In this document: positions 12,207 to 62,272 of the stretch, piece after piece
How the letters are laid out: the number at the start of each line of letters is the position of its first letter
Position numbering within the stretch: position 1 is the stretch's first letter
DNA from: an uncultured virus (IMG/VR IMGVR_UViG_3300020404_001964)
Taxonomy: Duplodnaviria > Heunggongvirae > Uroviricota > Caudoviricetes
DNA: 64,000 bases
IMG/VR virus record: IMGVR_UViG_3300020404_001964
Span: 62,001 to 126,000 of that record
Reading direction: 5' to 3' (one strand)
Notes under the pieces: generated by a model
Seen by the model: the letters and a program-made list of their open reading frames with translations, nothing else
What the model was told of the DNA's origin: nothing
The model's database searches: none
Program-made: the position numbers and the translations under genes

Positions 12207-12665
12207 TTATGCGTCATCTGTGAAGTCGTCGTCGTCTGAGTTAGCAACGTCGTCATCACCCGCTTCTTCAACTTTTACTTTACCAGCACTAGCCGCCGCA
12301 AAATCCCATGCGAGTTTTTGTCCGTCTAATGCGTTTGATCCAGTATTGCTTGGTTTAGCAACTGTCAAAGTACGTCCTGAAATTTTGCTTACGCCGTAAG
12401 TTTCATTGTCAGAACCTTGTACTGATATTGTCATTTCGCCTGAAGTTAATGCCGCAGGTAATTTTCCAGATACCAATGTACAAGTGATTTCAGTGTCAGT
12501 GGCACCAGTTTCAGCAACTACGAATTTTTTAGATCCTTTTTGCCTTACGATAGTACCTTCAACAACTGATGAACCATTGTGAAAGTTGACTTTAATTTCA
12601 CTTGCCGCCGCAGTTGCACCGCCAGCCGCTGTTGTGAACAGTCTTTTGTTAAGTGGTCTTCCCAT
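12207..12665 (-). CDS. Late, probably virion, protein (MGRPLNKR N-terminus)
   Basis: Strong AGGAG RBS, TAAATA promoter at 12772-12777, acidic C-terminal tail. Confidence 0.7.
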   Translation of the reverse strand: MGRPLNKRLFTTAAGGATAAASEIKVNFHNGSSVVEGTIVRQKGSKKFVVAETGATDTEITCTLVSGKLPAALTSGEMTISVQGSDNETYGVSKISGRTLTVAKPSNTGSNALDGQKLAWDFAAASAGKVKVEEAGDDDVANSDDDDFTDDA

Positions 12666-12770
12666 TTGTTTTCTCCTATTTTAGAAGTCCAATCCGGGTT
12701 CTATCCGGTACGCAGTGGGTTATTACTGCATAAGACTTTGACATTATGCCAAAGTTCGTTTGAACTAAAG
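12666..12770 (-). promoter_or_regulatory. Structured 5' leader (three-way junction plus competing hairpins)
   Basis: Hand-found helices with G-U pairs on the - strand between late promoter and RBS (see findings). Confidence 0.6.
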
Positions 12771-15377: not shown

Positions 15378-16466
15378 TTATATACCCGCCAGTCTTCTAA
15401 TGTCAACAATGTTACTGTTGAACTGACTGCCGTTTACAATGTTTGTTTGTTTATCGCCTGTTACTTCTGTGCCTTCATTTATAGCCTGTTTTTTCGCTGG
15501 AGTCCTACCGTTTAGTACGGACGGAATGTACTTTTCGAATTGCTTTCGTAAAGCACCCGTCTGCACACTCTCCAGTAAGTTGTTCATTATTTCTTTTTGT
15601 TCAGTGTTCAATGGAGTTACTAACTCATTGATTACTTTTTCTCTCTCAGCCGCTTCTTTGATTGTAACAATTTCTTTTTCTTTTGCTTCAATCTGCTTTT
15701 TGTTCTCTTCGGCTGTCTTCTTCGCTTCTTCCGCCTGTAGTTTCGCCATGTCCACTACTTTTAGAAGTTTGGCTGTTTCACCTTTTTCGTTCAAGAATGA
15801 TTGTGTGTATTCTTGTGCGTAAGATTCAAACAGTCTGCGACCAAAGTCATTTTTGCGAGCCGCTTCAATGTCATCTTTTAATGAACTAATCTCTTTTTGT
15901 AGAGTTTTGCCCACTACTTCTGACACTTTACTAGCACCTTTTTTCACAAAGTTATTTCTAACTTTTTCAAAATGTGCCTTCGCTTCTCTGATAAGACGTA
16001 CTTTTGTCTCAGCAACGTCTTGTTTGTCTTTTTGAAACTCTGCGATTTCTTTAGATAGAGCATCAACTACGAATTCCTCAAGTTTCTGGAAGTTTTCTGC
16101 CATAACTTTTTGGTCTGCGTGTAATTCAGCAACTTCACCTTTAAGTTGTTCAAAAACAAACGACTTTAATTTGTCTGAGTGTTCACGGATTTGAGTAGCA
16201 TACTTAACTTTTTCTTCTGCTAATTGCTTCTTGTCTTCTGCGAACTCTGCCATTTCTGCTTCTATTCTTTCAGATACCATTTTGTCAACAGCGTCTGTTA
16301 AAGTTGCTTTGTCGTGTTCATACTTCTCAGCAAACTCTGAACGAAGTTCAGCAGTGGCAGAAAGTTTGTTTTCTTCAACCTTCTGGTTCCATGCTTGTTC
16401 GATTTCTGCTCTGATCTCTTCCGAAATTGCGTTGTTTTCAAAAAGTGATTTCAGTGCTTCTAACAT
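15378..16466 (-). CDS. gp22: Prohead core/scaffolding protein (gp22-like)
   Basis: Long E/K-rich coiled coil between protease and capsid genes. Confidence 0.75.
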   Translation of the reverse strand: MLEALKSLFENNAISEEIRAEIEQAWNQKVEENKLSATAELRSEFAEKYEHDKATLTDAVDKMVSERIEAEMAEFAEDKKQLAEEKVKYATQIREHSDKLKSFVFEQLKGEVAELHADQKVMAENFQKLEEFVVDALSKEIAEFQKDKQDVAETKVRLIREAKAHFEKVRNNFVKKGASKVSEVVGKTLQKEISSLKDDIEAARKNDFGRRLFESYAQEYTQSFLNEKGETAKLLKVVDMAKLQAEEAKKTAEENKKQIEAKEKEIVTIKEAAEREKVINELVTPLNTEQKEIMNNLLESVQTGALRKQFEKYIPSVLNGRTPAKKQAINEGTEVTGDKQTNIVNGSQFNSNIVDIRRLAGI

Positions 16467-24285: not shown

Positions 24286-24855
24286 ATGCAAGTCTACACA
24301 CAAATTGTACGACCCCAGGAGTTGGATGAGGATGACCTGTGGATTCCTTGTCTTACCACAGCCACCGTTAAACACTCACCTGCTGAAAAACAACCTTTGA
24401 TTGTCACACACATCGAAGCAATCAATCATTACGAACACAGTCTTACAAAACTGTTGGAACAGAAGGTGTTTGCTGTGGGGTCAAAGACATATGACCGACT
24501 TGTAGAGGTTGGCTTCCACCAAGATAATATTCATTGGCGACACAGAGCGGACGAGTTAAGATTGCGTGCCAAAAACATAGGCCCAATGACTTGGCTCCAC
24601 GGAGACAAGTACGCCAGAGATTTTGGCGCCATACCAGAAGTCACAGCAATTCAAACCTACGAATCAAAACCAGATGCCACAGCCATCAAACAGATATTGA
24701 AACTGGAACCAGATGTAATTCATGTGTATTCAGATGCTGTATTGAAAGAGTTGGAGATTAGAAACTGGAGTCACACCAAGTTGAAACACGTTGCGTCCGC
24801 GGAACCTGATAATTCTGTTTGGTTAGATTGTGAATCGTTTGATCCTAATGTTTAA
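24286..24855 (+). CDS. hemD: Uroporphyrinogen-III synthase-like protein, compact
   Basis: VRP near N-term, WIPCL, IVTHIEAI (FTS.NAV-like), VFAVGSKT..RL...GF, IQTYES, DVIHVYS..V. Confidence 0.7.
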   Translation: MQVYTQIVRPQELDEDDLWIPCLTTATVKHSPAEKQPLIVTHIEAINHYEHSLTKLLEQKVFAVGSKTYDRLVEVGFHQDNIHWRHRADELRLRAKNIGPMTWLHGDKYARDFGAIPEVTAIQTYESKPDATAIKQILKLEPDVIHVYSDAVLKELEIRNWSHTKLKHVASAEPDNSVWLDCESFDPNV

Positions 24856-25240
24856 GAACGACTAGCGTCGTTCTGCTTTTCGCTTACGCTCAAGCATTAA
24901 AGCAATTACATAACGAAGTTATGTGTCGCATCATGCAGACAGTTGATCCATACTTCACCCAGTAACGGGAAAAGTATGAAGCCATCATGCGAGACTAGCC
25001 TGCCATTTTGTGAAAGGAACTTTTGTACGGAAGCGGTGACCCGCCAACTCCCTATTCCAGACTTCATTAGTCACGGGCAACTGACCCACCCTTCACAAAC
25101 AAAGTGAGCAGTTGTGATGTTGTATCTTTTTCACAGAGCATCTTCTTTTGTGCCTTTAGTTAGCACTCGACTTGCAACTCAGGATTCACCATTGTGTTTC
25201 AAACGCACTTCCTGGATCTACGATCAATTTGGTTGCTATG
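24855..25240 (-). ncRNA. Candidate large structured non-coding RNA (unassigned family)
   Basis: ORF-free, ~45% GC by hand count over 24901-25200, about ten helices, G-U pairs favour the - strand. Confidence 0.6.
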
Positions 25241-25672
25241 TTAAGCCTTGTTGTAATTTTTAAGTTCTTCTTTAAGGATTTTGGAACCACCAACTCTCAC
25301 ATTGATAATGCCATTGTAGTAATCATCGGATTCTAATACTCGCCTTTCGAACTGTTCTCGAGCCTCGAGATAACTCATTACGCCTCTAGTGTTACAGATG
25401 TATAATATTTCCCTAGTAAATTTGTCTTCGCCTAATTGTGCCACGTCAGCAAGTAAATGATCTGAAGAACCCCAATAGTCCTTCCAGTCCGATTCAACCT
25501 TGCTTCTACGTTTGTTTATCCTGCCCTTGAGAGGCGGACGTGTCTTCTTGAATTTTGCTAATTTTTTGCCCACATACCGTTTACCGTTGGTTGTGTTTGT
25601 GATGAGATACACAAATCCTTCGCAGTCTTCTGGTAGTGAGTCTATTGTTTTACCTTGATAAGTCCATGGCAT
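25241..25672 (-). CDS. GIY-YIG-like (Seg-type) endonuclease, catalytic domain only
   Basis: GFVYLITNTTNGKRYVGKK, YWGSS, FTREIL, LEAREQ, YYN. Confidence 0.8.
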   Translation of the reverse strand: MPWTYQGKTIDSLPEDCEGFVYLITNTTNGKRYVGKKLAKFKKTRPPLKGRINKRRSKVESDWKDYWGSSDHLLADVAQLGEDKFTREILYICNTRGVMSYLEAREQFERRVLESDDYYNGIINVRVGGSKILKEELKNYNKA

Positions 25673-25689
25673 ATGGACATACTTACTGA

Positions 25690-25908
25690 TTATTTTTTCC
25701 GCTCTTGCTGTTTTTGGATCTTGGACACTTTATATTGTGCTTCAAGTTCTTTACGTCTTTGACGTGCCAAAATTCTAATTTCCGCTAGTGCCTTTCTAGC
25801 GGCTACTTTGGTAGCGAGGCTTCGCCTCTCAGCAAACAACTCGTTTGCCTTGAAATAAGCCATGTACGCCTTGGTCAGTTTATCGTGAGTATCATCTTGA
25901 ATGGTCAT
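25690..25908 (-). CDS. Small basic protein, histone H1-like Hc1 type
   Basis: Likely start ATG 25908 overlapping the gp46 end; AARKALAEIRILARQRRKE resembles the Hc1 RARKA..E......RKE pattern. Confidence 0.55.
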   Translation of the reverse strand: MTIQDDTHDKLTKAYMAYFKANELFAERRSLATKVAARKALAEIRILARQRRKELEAQYKVSKIQKQQERKK

Positions 25909-27676
25909 AAGTTTCCACGTCATTAGCATATGCTGTAAAGCCGTTCTCTTTCACAACTTTCAACACATTGTTAACACGTCCCATTAATTCATCTTTGTGC
26001 GATATCAAGAATATATTTTTGCCTGCTTCTCTGCTCATTTTCTTCAAGATTGCCAAACTGCTTTCTACACCTGCTGAATCCATTCCTGAATCTATTAATT
26101 CATCTAAGAACAACAAGTTGATGTTTTGATACAAGTTTTCCCATACATCTCTAAATGCGAAACTTAATCCTAATATCAATCTGTTACGTTCTCCTCTACT
26201 TAAATTATCAAAATCTAGTTCTTGTCCCAGTTGAGTGATCTCCACACTTAAATCATTTTTAAATGTGACCAAGTGTGGAAGACCCAATTGATCCAAGTAG
26301 TGAGTTAACCTGTTGTTCAAGAAGGTTAAGTTTTGATCAATTATTTTTTTCCTTATGAAGGAATCTTTGTTTGTAAGCAGTTTGTATAAAAACTCTTGGT
26401 GCTCTTTCAGTTTCTGTAGAGTGTTTGCTGTGTCCCAATTTATTTCTTGTACTGCTTGATTCTTTAATTCATCTATTTGATCTAGATATGGATTTGCTTC
26501 TTCTTTTTTGTTTTTGAGTGCTGTGTTGATTGATTCCACATACTGTCTGTGATCATATGCTTCTTTTAGTGTGTCATAATAAGTGTTTGGTCTTTGATCC
26601 AAATCCCCAACTGCTTCAATATCTTTTGTTGTTTGTTCCAGTTGTTCACTTAATTCCATTACATAACTGTTGGATTCACCATATTCCATTTCTAATTTTT
26701 TCTGCATTTCTTCAATTTTATCTTGCGGTAAGTCTTGTCCACAAGCATAACAAGTGGCTTTGTGATTTAATTTTTCTAAATCTTTGTGTAATTTTTTTGC
26801 TGTTTTGTCTGCTTGTTCTATTGTGCTTTCCAAACTTGCTCTATCTTTTTGTAATTGTCTTAATACATCATTAAGTTTTGTCCAATCTTCAAGTTTTTGA
26901 TGTGCTTCTAATTCAGCATCAATGTCTACACTTTGTAATTCTTTTAAATTATTTTCTAATTTTTCAATATCTGTTTTGTTTTGATTGTGCCAAGCACTGC
27001 TTTTATTAGTTAAACTGTGAATTGTTTCTTCTACTTTCTCATTACTAATTTTTAAACCTTCTAATCTTGCTGTCTCAAGTGCTATATCTTCTTTTGAACG
27101 TTTAATATGTGTCTTTAAGATGTCTGCTTTCTCAGACAACAGTTGAATTCCTAATAGTTGTTCAATTATTTCCTGTTGTTCATTGTTGTGTAAACTTAAA
27201 AAAGGTTGCGTGTATGTGTTGAGTGCCACAATGTGTTTAAACATTTTTGGATTCATTCCAATCATTCTGTTCAAGTCTTCTTGTGTTTTACGTGAATCTC
27301 CTTGACTGACATCTGAAAGTTCTTGTTCTTGTTCGTCAATGTAATATTTCATTACATTTGGTTTTCTACCACGTTCTACTCTGTAGTTTACTCCATCTTT
27401 TTCAAATGCTATTGTGACCAACATTGATTTGCTGTTGGTTTTATTCACAAGATTGTCTTTACGAATTTTTGTTAGTGCTTCACCATATAGTGCGTAACAC
27501 AATGCGTTGACTATGGTTGTTTTACCTGTACCATTACGTGAACCTGCGTCATCACCGCCCATGTCCAAGTTTTCACCTAGTACCAGTGTTAACAGTTTTT
27601 GTTGAAAGTCTATAGCCTGGGTTTGATTACCCACACTCATAAAATTTTTTACCGTAAGTGTTTTAATCAGTATCAT
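25892..27676 (-). CDS. gp46: Recombination endonuclease ATPase subunit (gp46/Rad50/SbcC)
   Basis: KNFMSVGN, Walker A NGTGKT, zinc hook CYAC, signature LSRGE, LFLDE, ISH. Confidence 0.95.
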   Translation of the reverse strand: MILIKTLTVKNFMSVGNQTQAIDFQQKLLTLVLGENLDMGGDDAGSRNGTGKTTIVNALCYALYGEALTKIRKDNLVNKTNSKSMLVTIAFEKDGVNYRVERGRKPNVMKYYIDEQEQELSDVSQGDSRKTQEDLNRMIGMNPKMFKHIVALNTYTQPFLSLHNNEQQEIIEQLLGIQLLSEKADILKTHIKRSKEDIALETARLEGLKISNEKVEETIHSLTNKSSAWHNQNKTDIEKLENNLKELQSVDIDAELEAHQKLEDWTKLNDVLRQLQKDRASLESTIEQADKTAKKLHKDLEKLNHKATCYACGQDLPQDKIEEMQKKLEMEYGESNSYVMELSEQLEQTTKDIEAVGDLDQRPNTYYDTLKEAYDHRQYVESINTALKNKKEEANPYLDQIDELKNQAVQEINWDTANTLQKLKEHQEFLYKLLTNKDSFIRKKIIDQNLTFLNNRLTHYLDQLGLPHLVTFKNDLSVEITQLGQELDFDNLSRGERNRLILGLSFAFRDVWENLYQNINLLFLDELIDSGMDSAGVESSLAILKKMSREAGKNIFLISHKDELMGRVNNVLKVVKENGFTAYANDVETYDHSR

Positions 27677-28682
27677 TGTTTAGATCTCTAAATATTTTTA
27701 GCAAAACAGATTTATCATATGCATCAGATTCGATTGTTTCAATTTCTTTTGATACAATTTGATCAACACTTTCAAACTTGGTTATGTCTAGTTCTGTATT
27801 GATCTCTTCTTCTTTTTTGCTAGGAATTAAAGTAATTTCTCTACAATCATATTTTTTCATGAAAGTCTCTTTGATATAACTTGCTTCTTCAAAACTTATA
27901 TCAATATCTAGTGTAACTCTTAGATGCATTTTGCTTTTCATTATTTCATCTGTTTTGTCCAGCAATGTGCTTAATTTTACATTTCTATATTTAGGACAGT
28001 TGCCCCAATTGAAATACACAGGCTCTGTGCCATGTTCTAGTATCATCATACCACGCTCATCATCATCAACATCTGCGTAATTGTGCGGAAACGGATTACC
28101 TAAGTAATGAATATTATTTTTAACTTGTCTTTTATGAAAGTGACCAGAGAAAACATACTCTTGTTTTTTAAAGTCGCTTGGTCTTAATTCTCCTGTGTCT
28201 GGCATTTCTACCATAGCATTCATAAAGAAGTTAGGCAGTTCAAAATGACCAAACATATATTTGCATTCCATATTGCCAACTTTTTTCCATTCATTGCCTA
28301 TTAACCAAGGCACTAATATAGTGTCATCTATTTTTGTAATTTTATTAACCATTGTGATGCCTGGAATAAATCTTCCAAACTCTGTGGATTGAATGTCTCT
28401 GCTGTCTTTGTAATACAAATCGTGATTACCTGGAAAAAAATAAAAATTATCAAATGCTTTTCCTAATTTTTCCAAACATCTGATTGAAGCATCCATTGTG
28501 GTTATGTTTACACTGTTCCTGTTGTGATGCCAATCACCACAAAAGAGTCCTGTCTCACAACCATGTTTCTTTGCTAAATCTATATACCAATCTACAAATT
28601 CTTCACAATCATCGTTGTGTAATTTAGAGTTGGATTTTAATCCGAAATGTATATCGGTAAAAACTGCTAATTTCTTGAACAA
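27663..28682 (-). CDS. gp47: Recombination nuclease subunit (gp47/Mre11/SbcD)
   Basis: TDIHFG, GDWHH, GNHD, FGHFE, SGHFH; TTG start after AGGAG. Confidence 0.95.
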   Translation of the reverse strand: MFKKLAVFTDIHFGLKSNSKLHNDDCEEFVDWYIDLAKKHGCETGLFCGDWHHNRNSVNITTMDASIRCLEKLGKAFDNFYFFPGNHDLYYKDSRDIQSTEFGRFIPGITMVNKITKIDDTILVPWLIGNEWKKVGNMECKYMFGHFELPNFFMNAMVEMPDTGELRPSDFKKQEYVFSGHFHKRQVKNNIHYLGNPFPHNYADVDDDERGMMILEHGTEPVYFNWGNCPKYRNVKLSTLLDKTDEIMKSKMHLRVTLDIDISFEEASYIKETFMKKYDCREITLIPSKKEEEINTELDITKFESVDQIVSKEIETIESDAYDKSVLLKIFRDLNNDTD

Positions 28683-28703
28683 AATAATCTCCTACTTTTC
28701 TTT

Positions 28704-28732
28704 AGAATAACTGAAAATGTTAAATTTGTCAA
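28704..28732 (-). promoter_or_regulatory. sigma70-type promoter TTGACA-N17-TATTCT for the gp47-gp46 operon
   Basis: TTGACA aatttaacattttcagt TATTCT on - strand. Confidence 0.7.
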
Positions 28733-29584
28733 CTACTTTTTTGTTCGTTTACTGACTTTTGTTTTTGGAGCCGATTTTGTTGCAGGTTTTGGCGCACTGC
28801 TATCACCGGAAGTTTGTCTGGTCATACTCGGCATCATATTGTTAAGTTCTAAAATATCATCTCTAATGTTTTGATTTCTTTTTTCAATATTAATAATTCT
28901 CACAAATGAATTAGTCACTGCCGCTGTGTAATAAGCAAACGGATTGTTAGATTTACTTTCATCAAATTGTAAACCAATTTGTGCTAATTGTAAAATGGCC
29001 TGACCCTGCATTTCATCATTGTAAGTATAACCTCTCACGTTACCTCTTGTACCGTATCTTTCACACAATTTCATCCACATCTTTGCTAATTCGTTTGTGG
29101 CTCTGCCGGCATCTTTATTAAATTTACCGTTTTCCATTCCACCATCCCAATGACTTTTACCCACACAAACCAAGTTGCCTTTTTTATCATATTTCCAATG
29201 CTGGAAAGGAGGAAAGTTAACTTTTACTTTGCCATCAGCAACTGTTTTTGGATTCTTTTTTCTGCCAGGTTCGTCTGGGATATGCTCAAAAGTCATCACT
29301 CTAAAAACTACATCATCTTTATCTATTGACCTATAATCTATTTCGCAGTCACTTAATTTTGTTTTTGGGTCTACTTTTTTACGTTGTTCATACGTTTGTT
29401 GCGTAAGTTTTTTGGCTTTATTTCTTTTGGCTTGGGCCACAGTTCGTATGTTTATGGCATCCACATTGTTCACAATCAAATTGTATGTGCTGTAGGCTTC
29501 ATCCACAAAACTACAAAAAGTGCTTTTAGACTTGTGAATTTCGGCTAATAGGTCTCTGTTGTTAAGATAATTGACTTTTTTCAT
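28733..29584 (-). CDS. gp55: Late-transcription sigma factor (gp55-like)
   Basis: NYLNNRDLL, NVRGYTYNDEM, FDESKSNNPFAYYT...NSFVR.I..EK. Confidence 0.9.
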   Translation of the reverse strand: MKKVNYLNNRDLLAEIHKSKSTFCSFVDEAYSTYNLIVNNVDAINIRTVAQAKRNKAKKLTQQTYEQRKKVDPKTKLSDCEIDYRSIDKDDVVFRVMTFEHIPDEPGRKKNPKTVADGKVKVNFPPFQHWKYDKKGNLVCVGKSHWDGGMENGKFNKDAGRATNELAKMWMKLCERYGTRGNVRGYTYNDEMQGQAILQLAQIGLQFDESKSNNPFAYYTAAVTNSFVRIINIEKRNQNIRDDILELNNMMPSMTRQTSGDSSAPKPATKSAPKTKVSKRTKK

Positions 29585-29610: not shown

Positions 29611-29639
29611 ATTATAAACTACTCAGTTAATTTTGTCAA
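29611..29639 (-). promoter_or_regulatory. Perfect sigma70 promoter TTGACA-N17-TATAAT for gp55
   Basis: TTGACA aaattaactgagtagtt TATAAT on - strand. Confidence 0.85.
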
Positions 29640-61459: not shown

Positions 61460-62272
61460 ATGACCAAAGGGGTTTTGCTTTTTGCTCATAACAATAGCAC
61501 TGTGGATTATGTCAAACAGGCTAATTTTTGTGCAGGTCAGATTAAAAAACATCTTGATTTGCCAGTGTGTTTGATTACATCGGACAAATTCAACGAAGAT
61601 CATAATAATTTTAATCACGTCATTGTAGTAGAAAAACCAAACACAGATCAAACAAAAAGATTTTACAATGTTACAAACAGTTATGAGGATACATGGAACA
61701 ATACTTCAAGACCAGATGCTTATTCTTTAACTCCGTACGATGAAACCATTGTAATGGATACTGACTATATTGTGGCAAACAGCAACCTTAACAAAGTGTT
61801 TGAAAGCAAAGAAGATTTTTTAATCAACTACAAAGCACAACACGTAGACTTTGAATCTAGATACACAGAAGAAATGAAATATGTTAGTGATACAGGTATT
61901 GAAATGTGCTGGGCAACTGTATTTTATTTTAAGAAAACTGAAAGAACTAGAATTTTGTTTGATTTAATCAATCATATCAAAAAAGAATGGCAATTTTATA
62001 GATTCAAATATCAAATTGAAAATACAATTTATAGAAATGATTTTGCTTTTGCCATAGCAATTCACATGATTAATGATTTTGCTAAAACAAGTTGGCCCAA
62101 GCAATTGCCTAGCAAGTTGTTTTATACAACGGACAAAGATAGTGTAGACTCTTATCTTGATAATAAATGGAATTTTACATTAGAGCGAGGAGCAAAATGT
62201 CAGATTAAAGATATGAATATACACATAATGAACAAAATAGGATTGAATAAAATTATAGATCAATATGAATAG
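61460..62272 (+). CDS. GT-A fold glycosyltransferase-like protein (GT8-like)
   Basis: KGVLLFA, VCLIT, AYSLTPYDETIVMDTD (DxD), WATVFYFKK, RNDFAFAIA. Confidence 0.7.
   Translation: MTKGVLLFAHNNSTVDYVKQANFCAGQIKKHLDLPVCLITSDKFNEDHNNFNHVIVVEKPNTDQTKRFYNVTNSYEDTWNNTSRPDAYSLTPYDETIVMDTDYIVANSNLNKVFESKEDFLINYKAQHVDFESRYTEEMKYVSDTGIEMCWATVFYFKKTERTRILFDLINHIKKEWQFYRFKYQIENTIYRNDFAFAIAIHMINDFAKTSWPKQLPSKLFYTTDKDSVDSYLDNKWNFTLERGAKCQIKDMNIHIMNKIGLNKIIDQYE

Follow-up and report, generated by a model that had tools for sequence, protein, structure and literature searches.

What lies directly behind the recombination genes of an uncultured marine jumbo phage, a single RNA-dependent nuclease system or two neighbours with separate functions? 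The question is raised by a 64,000-nucleotide (nt) stretch of DNA, called the window below, which covers positions 62,001 to 126,000 of the record IMG/VR IMGVR_UViG_3300020404_001964, a T4-like contig of 134 kb (G000) that is ~37% complete by estimate. On the minus strand of the window, the gene for a 143-amino-acid (aa) GIY-YIG nuclease is followed by an element of ~385 nt (24855-25240), which fills the 386-nt gap between the nuclease and a convergent HemD-like gene. A preliminary description proposed that the basic insert of the nuclease binds the adjacent RNA to give a ribonucleoprotein (RNP), and mentioned a transcription-primed origin as an alternative. The comparison of related loci suggests instead, at a probability of about 0.45, that nuclease and element are independent neighbours in a conserved replication-recombination block. 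The structure and strand of the RNA, the concerted variation of two sequence boxes, the strand polarity of DNA-type hairpins and the interchange of nucleases are shown by computation. From the 5' end of the RNA strand, the parts of the element are as follows.

25143..25240, minus strand: variable 5' RNA domain, with the Polynucleobacter-1 motif in its place in some relatives
25116..25142, minus strand: conserved A-rich hairpin with a fully covarying closing helix
25079..25113, minus strand: long G-U-rich stem
25016..25076, minus strand: double-pseudoknot core (25073-70/25040-37, 25058-57/25017-16 and 25052-47/25034-29)
24983..24993, minus strand: box 1 (CTC + GCATGATG)
24949..24978, minus strand: hairpin B between the boxes, RNA-like, with G-U pairs and, in relatives, GNRA loops
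24929..24939, minus strand: box 2 (TCT + GCATGATG), which matches box 1 in concert across relatives
24908..24924, plus strand: hairpin C, a C(GAA)G DNA mini-hairpin on the template strand
24874..24896, minus strand: hairpin D, GAGCG-TA-AGCGA with tandem G-A, a ColE1-like pattern in single copy in G000
24855..24874, minus strand: hairpin E, C(GCTA)G where relatives have C(GNA)G or C(TTTA)G, also terminator-like for the convergent plus-strand gene

Separability of nuclease and RNA

Profile searches around 127 loci found through the RNA identified a GIY-YIG nuclease in 96, a PD-(D/E)XK enzyme (PHROG 244 'RusA-like') in 20, neither in 11 and both in none; the counts include duplicates, the nuclease was sought within 1.5 kb, and the loci with neither include L083, whose nuclease lies just past that limit. 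The corresponding numbers for the 80 non-redundant loci are 58, 13, 9 and 0. The GIY-YIG nuclease was present in 55 of 65 twin-box loci (four of the ten misses are chance matches) and in 52 of 79 loci found by the anchor hairpin. Viewed from the protein, the expected co-occurrence holds within the clade: among 80 nuclease loci 11 are too short, 64 of the other 69 pass a loose automatic test for the element (which 8 of 65 control stretches pass too), 3 more are recognised by eye, and L077 and L080 lack the element. Viewed from the RNA it fails, as 31 of the 127 loci are without the GIY-YIG nuclease.

The two parts also separate in complete genomes. The 328-kb genome G007 has the RNA and a PD-(D/E)XK enzyme without PF19835, the Pfam family of the window nuclease, and phage Melnitz has PF19835 (73% identical, with the same insert) without the twin-box pattern and without PD-(D/E)XK. 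Locus L203, in which gp46 is 82% identical and the boxes are the same as in the window, carries PD-(D/E)XK at the nuclease position. Mutual exclusion of GIY-YIG and a resolvase-annotated gene was likewise seen in 5 + 5 genome searches, mostly of incomplete genomes. RNA similarity tracks gp46 (rho 0.43) as well as the nuclease (rho 0.40; 66 of 106 three-part loci, pairs not independent), and nucleases 82-83% identical to that of the window accompany a very different RNA class. Open reading frames (ORFs) are inserted between nuclease and RNA in L083, L099, L107, L147 and L149. Each of four long contigs, two of them near-identical, has one copy of the element.

The proposed guide RNP is not supported by this comparison and runs into the refuting conditions set in the preliminary description, given the element without the nuclease in the 31 loci and G007 and the nuclease with its insert but no boxes in Melnitz. 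A guide-like variable segment was also looked for in the alignment; the sole short variable segment is the internal duplicated box, which has no complementary partner in the RNA. A genome terminus at the element was considered and rejected: 15 of 80 contigs end at most 600 nt downstream of it and 2 upstream, but the ends are scattered and are therefore read as assembly breaks.

The GIY-YIG nuclease

The 143-aa protein is a member of Pfam SegE_GIY-YIG (PF19835, E 6.5e-36), a large family with 3401 representatives at E up to 0.001 and 772 cultured phage records. The corresponding PHROG 447, which includes PSSM2_218 of phage P-SSM2 (L326:4712-5149), is widely labelled 'NAD synthetase', and its fold is GIY-YIG. 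The preliminary description of the protein as a catalytic domain without a C-terminal DNA-binding domain proved accurate (a single domain plus one helix), and the sequence given for the basic insert is exactly that found in the protein. In the predicted structure (predicted local distance difference test, pLDDT, 96) an I-TevI-like catalytic domain bears this insert as an exposed basic beta-hairpin, and the insert is common to the family (93 of 96 aligned homologues). The GIY-YIG residues Y22, Y33, G35, Y66, E103 and N120 are invariant in 96 of 96 homologues. No solved homologue was found by sequence search of the PDB.

The nuclease models as a symmetric homodimer joined through a conserved strand, residues 121-129. 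The model scores 0.69, whereas no control scores above 0.00; 100% of contacts are common to the runs, and pLDDT is at least 89. The mark set for this score is attained by 20 of 30 solved pairs and 1 of 23 single chains. Modelling supports a putative symmetric homodimer. Together with the interchange of the slot with two resolvase families, the dimer model suggests a resolvase, and the nuclease is, at slightly better than even odds, a homodimeric, RNA-independent branched-DNA (Holliday junction) resolvase in the slot of RusA-like and EndoVII enzymes. The basic beta-hairpin would then grip DNA.

Several points weigh against a resolvase. The closest fold is the catalytic domain of I-TevI (Z 8.7, rmsd 2.6, 82 aligned), and the junction nucleases Slx1 and HIGLE match the model at just Z 3.3 and 3.9. 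T4 EndoII is likewise oligomeric, so a dimer alone does not imply a resolvase. The catalytic Arg of GIY-YIG enzymes is R27 in I-TevI; in 83 of 96 homologues Asp replaces this usual Arg before the conserved Trp, which leaves catalysis unproven, and K37 (95 of 96 homologues) may, judging from conservation, be its substitute. For the protein alone, a host-DNA-degrading enzyme of the EndoII kind or a pared-down homing endonuclease would agree with the best folds, which include PD-T4-3 (Z 7.3) and T4 EndoII (Z 5.6) after I-TevI, and with the position of the gene outside the gp46 block in P-SSM2 and Melnitz. Such an enzyme appears rather unlikely in view of the mutual exclusion with a resolvase-annotated gene, the missing C-terminal DNA-binding domain and the conservation of the gene across hundreds of cyanophages, where it is not sporadic.

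Fold and strand of the RNA

The element folds with a minimum free energy (MFE) of -119.1 kcal/mol (z -3.0). The helix that was said to begin 4 nt after the nuclease stop codon is found in the MFE fold and is absent from the centroid. The view of the whole element as structured RNA applies to its 5' ~310 nt, which form a pseudoknotted RNA, and not to the last ~70 nt, which are DNA-hairpin-like. The alignment used here comprises 48 non-redundant relatives, taken from the 61 twin-box-positive of 68 representatives, with long insertions and poor alignments excluded. Mutual information (MI) recovers the helices without a folding model, including the pseudoknot 25073-70/25040-37 and the crossing helix 25058-57/25017-16. 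In the resulting 36-pair structure 95.7% of cells are paired and 25 of 36 pairs have two-sided changes; its covariation is 0.585 versus 0.07-0.11 for slid partners, a score that favours the structure, which was derived from the same alignment. The helices contain 235 G-U pairs, 91 of them from two near-invariant pairs, versus 8 A-C, which identifies the minus strand as the RNA strand. The 5' ~310 nt are a structured RNA on the minus strand.

The RNA core comes with at least three different 5' variants, one of them Rfam Polynucleobacter-1. Searching Rfam with the element gave nothing credible, and blastn against cultured phages gave no match. The covariance model of the window's RNA class also matches one of two class B loci tested and the Polynucleobacter-type L050; covariance model R1 holds 6 pairs only and misses distant elements. 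In the RNA of L207, L213, L252 and L302, the CCG segment is separated from the G-rich hairpin by insertions of 70-80 nt. Marine RNA libraries contain the region, as contigs showing neither strand nor level. One RNA contig spans the basic protein, the nuclease and the RNA (24988-25896), which is no proof of a single transcript. The RNA contigs X1 and X2 (one study) end near box 1, at 24998 and 24988, X5 ends at 25027 and X4 runs through; these ends are not counted.

Twin boxes and DNA-type hairpins

The two boxes flank hairpin B at a spacing of 50-67 nt and are identical in 77 of 82 pairs, with ten hexamer types; 17 more loci gave no call, and the regular expression (regex) does not demand identity. 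Four positions of the boxes covary by identity, at 96-100%, among the aligned relatives. The box type is independent of the nuclease type. Pairing between the boxes was rejected by inspection for the GCATAA, ACATAA and AGATAA types, and the top 70 MI pairs include no third partner of the boxes within the RNA. Identity is presumably enforced by a shared binding factor or by two successive docking steps. The twin-box matches L134, L140, L153 and L157 and the match L267 were judged to be chance. An ORF of 60-93 aa with CxxC and histidines stands directly upstream of the RNA in L083, L099, L111, L147, L149 and L161, often between nuclease and RNA; the L147 copy has no Pfam or PHROG match. The ORF is a candidate for a box-binding protein.

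Hairpins downstream of box 2 were compared in 142 non-redundant elements. The first hairpin is an antisense (template-strand) C(GNA)G in 55 of 111 cases and a sense one in 1, hairpins further downstream are sense C(GNA)G in 63 of 144 and antisense in 0, and the antisense hairpin comes first in 50 of 50. A C(GNA)G hairpin is present in 115 of 142 elements, versus 5 of 137 RNA cores and 9 of 113 further downstream stretches used as controls, and the stems contain 967 Watson-Crick, 2 G-T and 1 A-C pairs. The GAGC..GCGA hairpin occurs in 131 of 142 elements by a loose regex. AT content is 0.71 after box 2 versus 0.55 in the RNA. Among 61 hairpins of at least 7 bp in G000, two have C(GNA)G-type loops, both in the element; the sole other C(GAA)G hairpin of G000, with 6 bp, is at window ~16334-16348. 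According to PMC13037366, such mini-hairpins have a much higher stability in DNA than in RNA and are found at the G4, RSF1010 ssiA and N4 initiation sites.

Related loci in cultured phages and bacterial islands

The slot after gp55-gp47-gp46 contains a RusA-like enzyme in PA5oct and Phosso and EndoVII in GAP32 (PHROG 423, E 6.8e-33). A spacer of 0.8-1.5 kb follows the slot nuclease in all three, and in Phosso RNase HI comes right after it. By eye, the spacers have a hairpin B-like stem, with a TCGTCAG direct repeat around it in GAP32; GAP32 and Phosso also show C(GAA)G hairpins. The annotation of PA5oct has four tiny ORFs that overlap the spacer with its anchor-like hairpin (L370:3481-4995); they may be spurious calls on a non-coding element. 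The four annotated non-coding RNAs (ncRNAs) of PA5oct, as listed in Table 1 of PMC7318152, are located elsewhere.

Two low-GC Pseudomonas islands adjoining purC and a 7-kb Terasakiella contig, which has a serine resolvase, also contain the anchor hairpin, the stem, the twin boxes and the 3' hairpins. Integrase and serine resolvase are confirmed for L350/L378, with a tRNA at the border. ORF inspection, with Pfam searches of 10 ORFs, found neither the GIY-YIG nuclease nor a recognised initiator in the bacterial versions. About 15 of 21 anchor matches in genome contigs were judged to be chance (9 inspected). Two element copies, L357 and L361, are in phage-like contigs of one Acholeplasmataceae metagenome-assembled genome, each just after a tRNA, and the GIY-YIG nuclease is absent from the DNA examined.

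Comparison with known systems

Polynucleobacter-1 (RF01718; Weinberg et al., 2010, PMC2864571) exceeds its gathering score in 6 of 24 loci scanned (3/14 + 3/10), namely L046, L050, L058, L226, L232 and L248, where it lies at the 5' end, upstream of the shared core. The motif, of ~140 nt, is without the pseudoknot core, twin boxes and DNA hairpins. The window copy has a shorter 5' domain, and no match exceeds 37 bits in the window or G000. PSSM2_218, which we take to be the reported neighbour gene of the motif, is a 45% identical homologue of the window nuclease. Methylobacterium-1 (RF01712; PMC2864571) is matched weakly (31.4 bits, cut-off 40) by the anchor hairpin, long stem and CCG segment of L350; it has no match in G000, G002, G005 and G007, and a weak match in Melnitz was rejected as lying inside a coding sequence.

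The origin of ColE1, with its RNA II preprimer, shares with the element a long folded RNA followed by a GAGCG-N-AGCGA hairpin on the same strand, and the bacterial island versions have no evident initiator gene nearby. A long structured RNA of the preprimer kind is present, and the downstream hairpin has the same pattern and orientation and may have the same function. In the ColE1 record, GAGCGTAGCGA is found once, on the primer-RNA strand ~140 nt past the presumed origin (0.09 expected by chance), and is presumably the primosome site. The differences are the lack of sequence similarity, the additional twin boxes and template-strand mini-hairpin, and the replicon, a jumbo phage of ~330-360 kb. 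T4 uses R-loop origins (PMC3016281), and its oriF/oriG R-loops and oriE iterons share with the element a T4-like phage, a transcript followed by an AT-rich stretch, and direct repeats. According to that review (PMC3016281), the T4 R-loops need no specific sequence, whereas the element has a strongly conserved tertiary fold.

OMEGA systems (IscB/TnpB) likewise have a small nuclease gene abutting a structured RNA of 300-400 nt. Here, however, the fold is GIY-YIG and not RuvC/HNH, the RNA alignment shows no guide-like segment, gene and RNA are separable rather than obligately linked, and the locus is a core phage locus and not an insertion sequence. Seg/I-TevI homing endonucleases have the C-terminal DNA-binding domain that the 143-aa nuclease lacks. 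The phage resolvases T4 EndoVII and RusA/Hjc-like PDDEXK_15 occupy the same slot, and the window nuclease is also dimeric in the model, with an unrelated fold. Slx1 and HIGLE are the GIY-YIG junction nucleases to which it has a weak structural match. A retron msr-msd was rejected, with no reverse transcriptase (RVT_1) in the partial contig G000. The literature searched, which left most subscription papers outside its scope, holds no description of the full element or of the nuclease with the RNA.

A possible RNA-primed origin and its alternatives

The transcription-primed origin mentioned in the preliminary description fits the anatomy of the element better than the RNP does, and a cis-acting, ColE1-like, RNA-primed origin is a tentative identification with a little under an even chance of being right. 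The transcript would fold into the pseudoknotted core and remain hybridised to its template around the twin boxes, where trimming by RNase H or a box-binding factor would let it prime leading-strand synthesis. The opened AT-rich DNA past the boxes would expose C(GNA)G mini-hairpins on each strand as signals for primase/primosome or helicase loading. Other observations do not fit so well. Neither G000 nor the complete G007 has an inflection of GC skew at the element, and the skew tracks gene strand. C(GNA)G hairpins are missing from 27 of 142 elements, G007 has none of at least 6 bp in its element and four elsewhere in the genome, and hairpin E is plausible as the terminator of the convergent gene. 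The covariance model of the core does not detect the PA5oct, GAP32, Phosso, Pseudomonas and Terasakiella elements, so their homology rests on position and architecture; PA5oct matches the anchor hairpin only (E 0.089), Atu_ph07 and SCTP-2 have no such spacer after gp46, and no PLSDB plasmid matches the two bacterial versions.

The main rival to an RNA-primed origin is a stand-alone RNA whose role, in trans or on its own mRNA, would be structural, regulatory or catalytic, with the boxes as successive processing sites or sites for a dimeric RNA-binding protein and the 3' hairpins merely ending the two convergent transcripts. It draws on an elaborate pseudoknotted core conserved beyond any obvious need of priming, the RNA-like hairpin B, the U-rich tail of hairpin E on the plus strand and the recovery of the 5' part in marine RNA libraries. 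C(GNA)G triloops of fixed polarity and without G-U pairs are, however, atypical of RNA terminators, the only two hairpins of at least 7 bp with such loops in G000 are in the element, and the listed ncRNAs of PA5oct lie elsewhere; we regard this rival as possible but doubtful.

An RNP in which the insert of the GIY-YIG protein contacts the RNA, and cleavage is scaffolded or guided by that RNA, would account for the tight adjacency in the clade, an RNA that usually starts at the nuclease stop codon, the RNA contig covering both genes and the RNA, and the modelled exposure of the basic hairpin. It is very improbable given the RNA without nuclease in 31 loci, L203 among them, and in G007, the nuclease without twin boxes in Melnitz, the other ORFs between the two parts, the similar nucleases beside a different RNA class, and an alignment with no guide-like segment. 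Just as improbable is a DNA site for concatemer resolution, packaging or nicking, served by the slot resolvase while transcription opens cruciforms. The element usually has a nuclease beside it, of one of three folds, the perfect inverted repeats could extrude as four-way junctions, and the bacterial versions are near serine resolvase genes, but one and the same box sequence is found beside both nuclease types, in 11 of 127 loci neither type lies within 1.5 kb, the terminal repeats of G007 are far from the element, and the RNA core is left unexplained.

Gene order and neighbouring features

The minus-strand order of promoter, gp47, gp46, small basic ORF, GIY-YIG gene and element was confirmed by ORF and profile searches. 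By gp46 identity (44-48%), the nearest cultured relatives are the jumbo phages Phosso, PA5oct/Paride and Atu_ph07. The features around the element are listed below.

29611..29639, minus strand: sigma70-type promoter-like site, 12/12 match, upstream of gp55
28733..29584, minus strand: gp55-like late sigma factor, 283 aa (PHROG 12791, E 9.5e-81)
28704..28732, minus strand: sigma70-type promoter-like site, 10/12, TTGACA-17-TATTCT, before gp47
27663..28682, minus strand: gp47 / Mre11-SbcD-like nuclease (PHROG 100, E 3.2e-61)
25892..27676, minus strand: gp46 / Rad50-SbcC-like ATPase (PHROG 77, E 1.2e-103)
25690..25908, minus strand: ORF of the 72-aa basic protein, its Hc1 resemblance a lead only
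25241..25672, minus strand: 143-aa SegE-family GIY-YIG nuclease (PF19835; PHROG 447), candidate branched-DNA resolvase
25493..25561, minus strand: basic insert of the nuclease, residues 38-60, a beta-hairpin arm in the model
24286..24855, plus strand: HemD-like gene, convergent, bounding the element (Pfam HEM4, E 4.9e-4, below cut-off)

The unit had been taken to start at the promoter at 28704-28732. The site is present, and since a perfect sigma70 site (29639-29611) precedes gp55, the unit may begin one gene earlier. It had also been said to have no terminator before the element; one terminator-like minus-strand site is found inside gp47 (28030-28016), at chance level, as the region has 9 such sites versus 7.4 expected. 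The name 'Hc1-like' for the 72-aa protein is kept as a lead only: Pfam Hc1 (PF07432) gives no match at E up to 1 (residues 3-72 scanned), and in the top ESM Atlas clusters (0.90-0.91) Hc1 is on a minority of members, 18% and 10%. This protein is retained in L203 (59% identical), where the nuclease is swapped. The HemD-like gene was found in close relatives only. The sole Rfam match in the window, freshwater-2 RNA (12663-12753, minus strand, 74.8 bits), lies away from the element.

Implications for phage replication

The analysis removes a tempting candidate for an RNA-guided nuclease as unsupported. In its place stands a wider proposal that is rather unlikely: a widespread class of initiator-free RNA-primed origins common to jumbo phages of marine and fresh waters and to bacterial islands integrated at tRNAs, in which a pseudoknotted RNA fixes, or even cleaves, its own 3' end at concertedly evolving twin boxes, from which strand-specific DNA mini-hairpins take over, beside a new family of dimeric GIY-YIG Holliday junction resolvases that is also a cyanophage core gene. 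With the same reserve, the two orphan Rfam motifs Polynucleobacter-1 and Methylobacterium-1 would be fragments of this pseudoknotted RNA. The claims can be tested in cultured phages with the gene block (PA5oct/Paride, GAP32 and Phosso) and in the Pseudomonas islands. If true, they would assign a function to two RNA motifs for which none has been listed since 2010, reassign a cyanophage core gene labelled 'NAD synthetase' or 'homing endonuclease' as a junction resolvase, and place a replication origin in a large clade of uncultured jumbo phages that are abundant.

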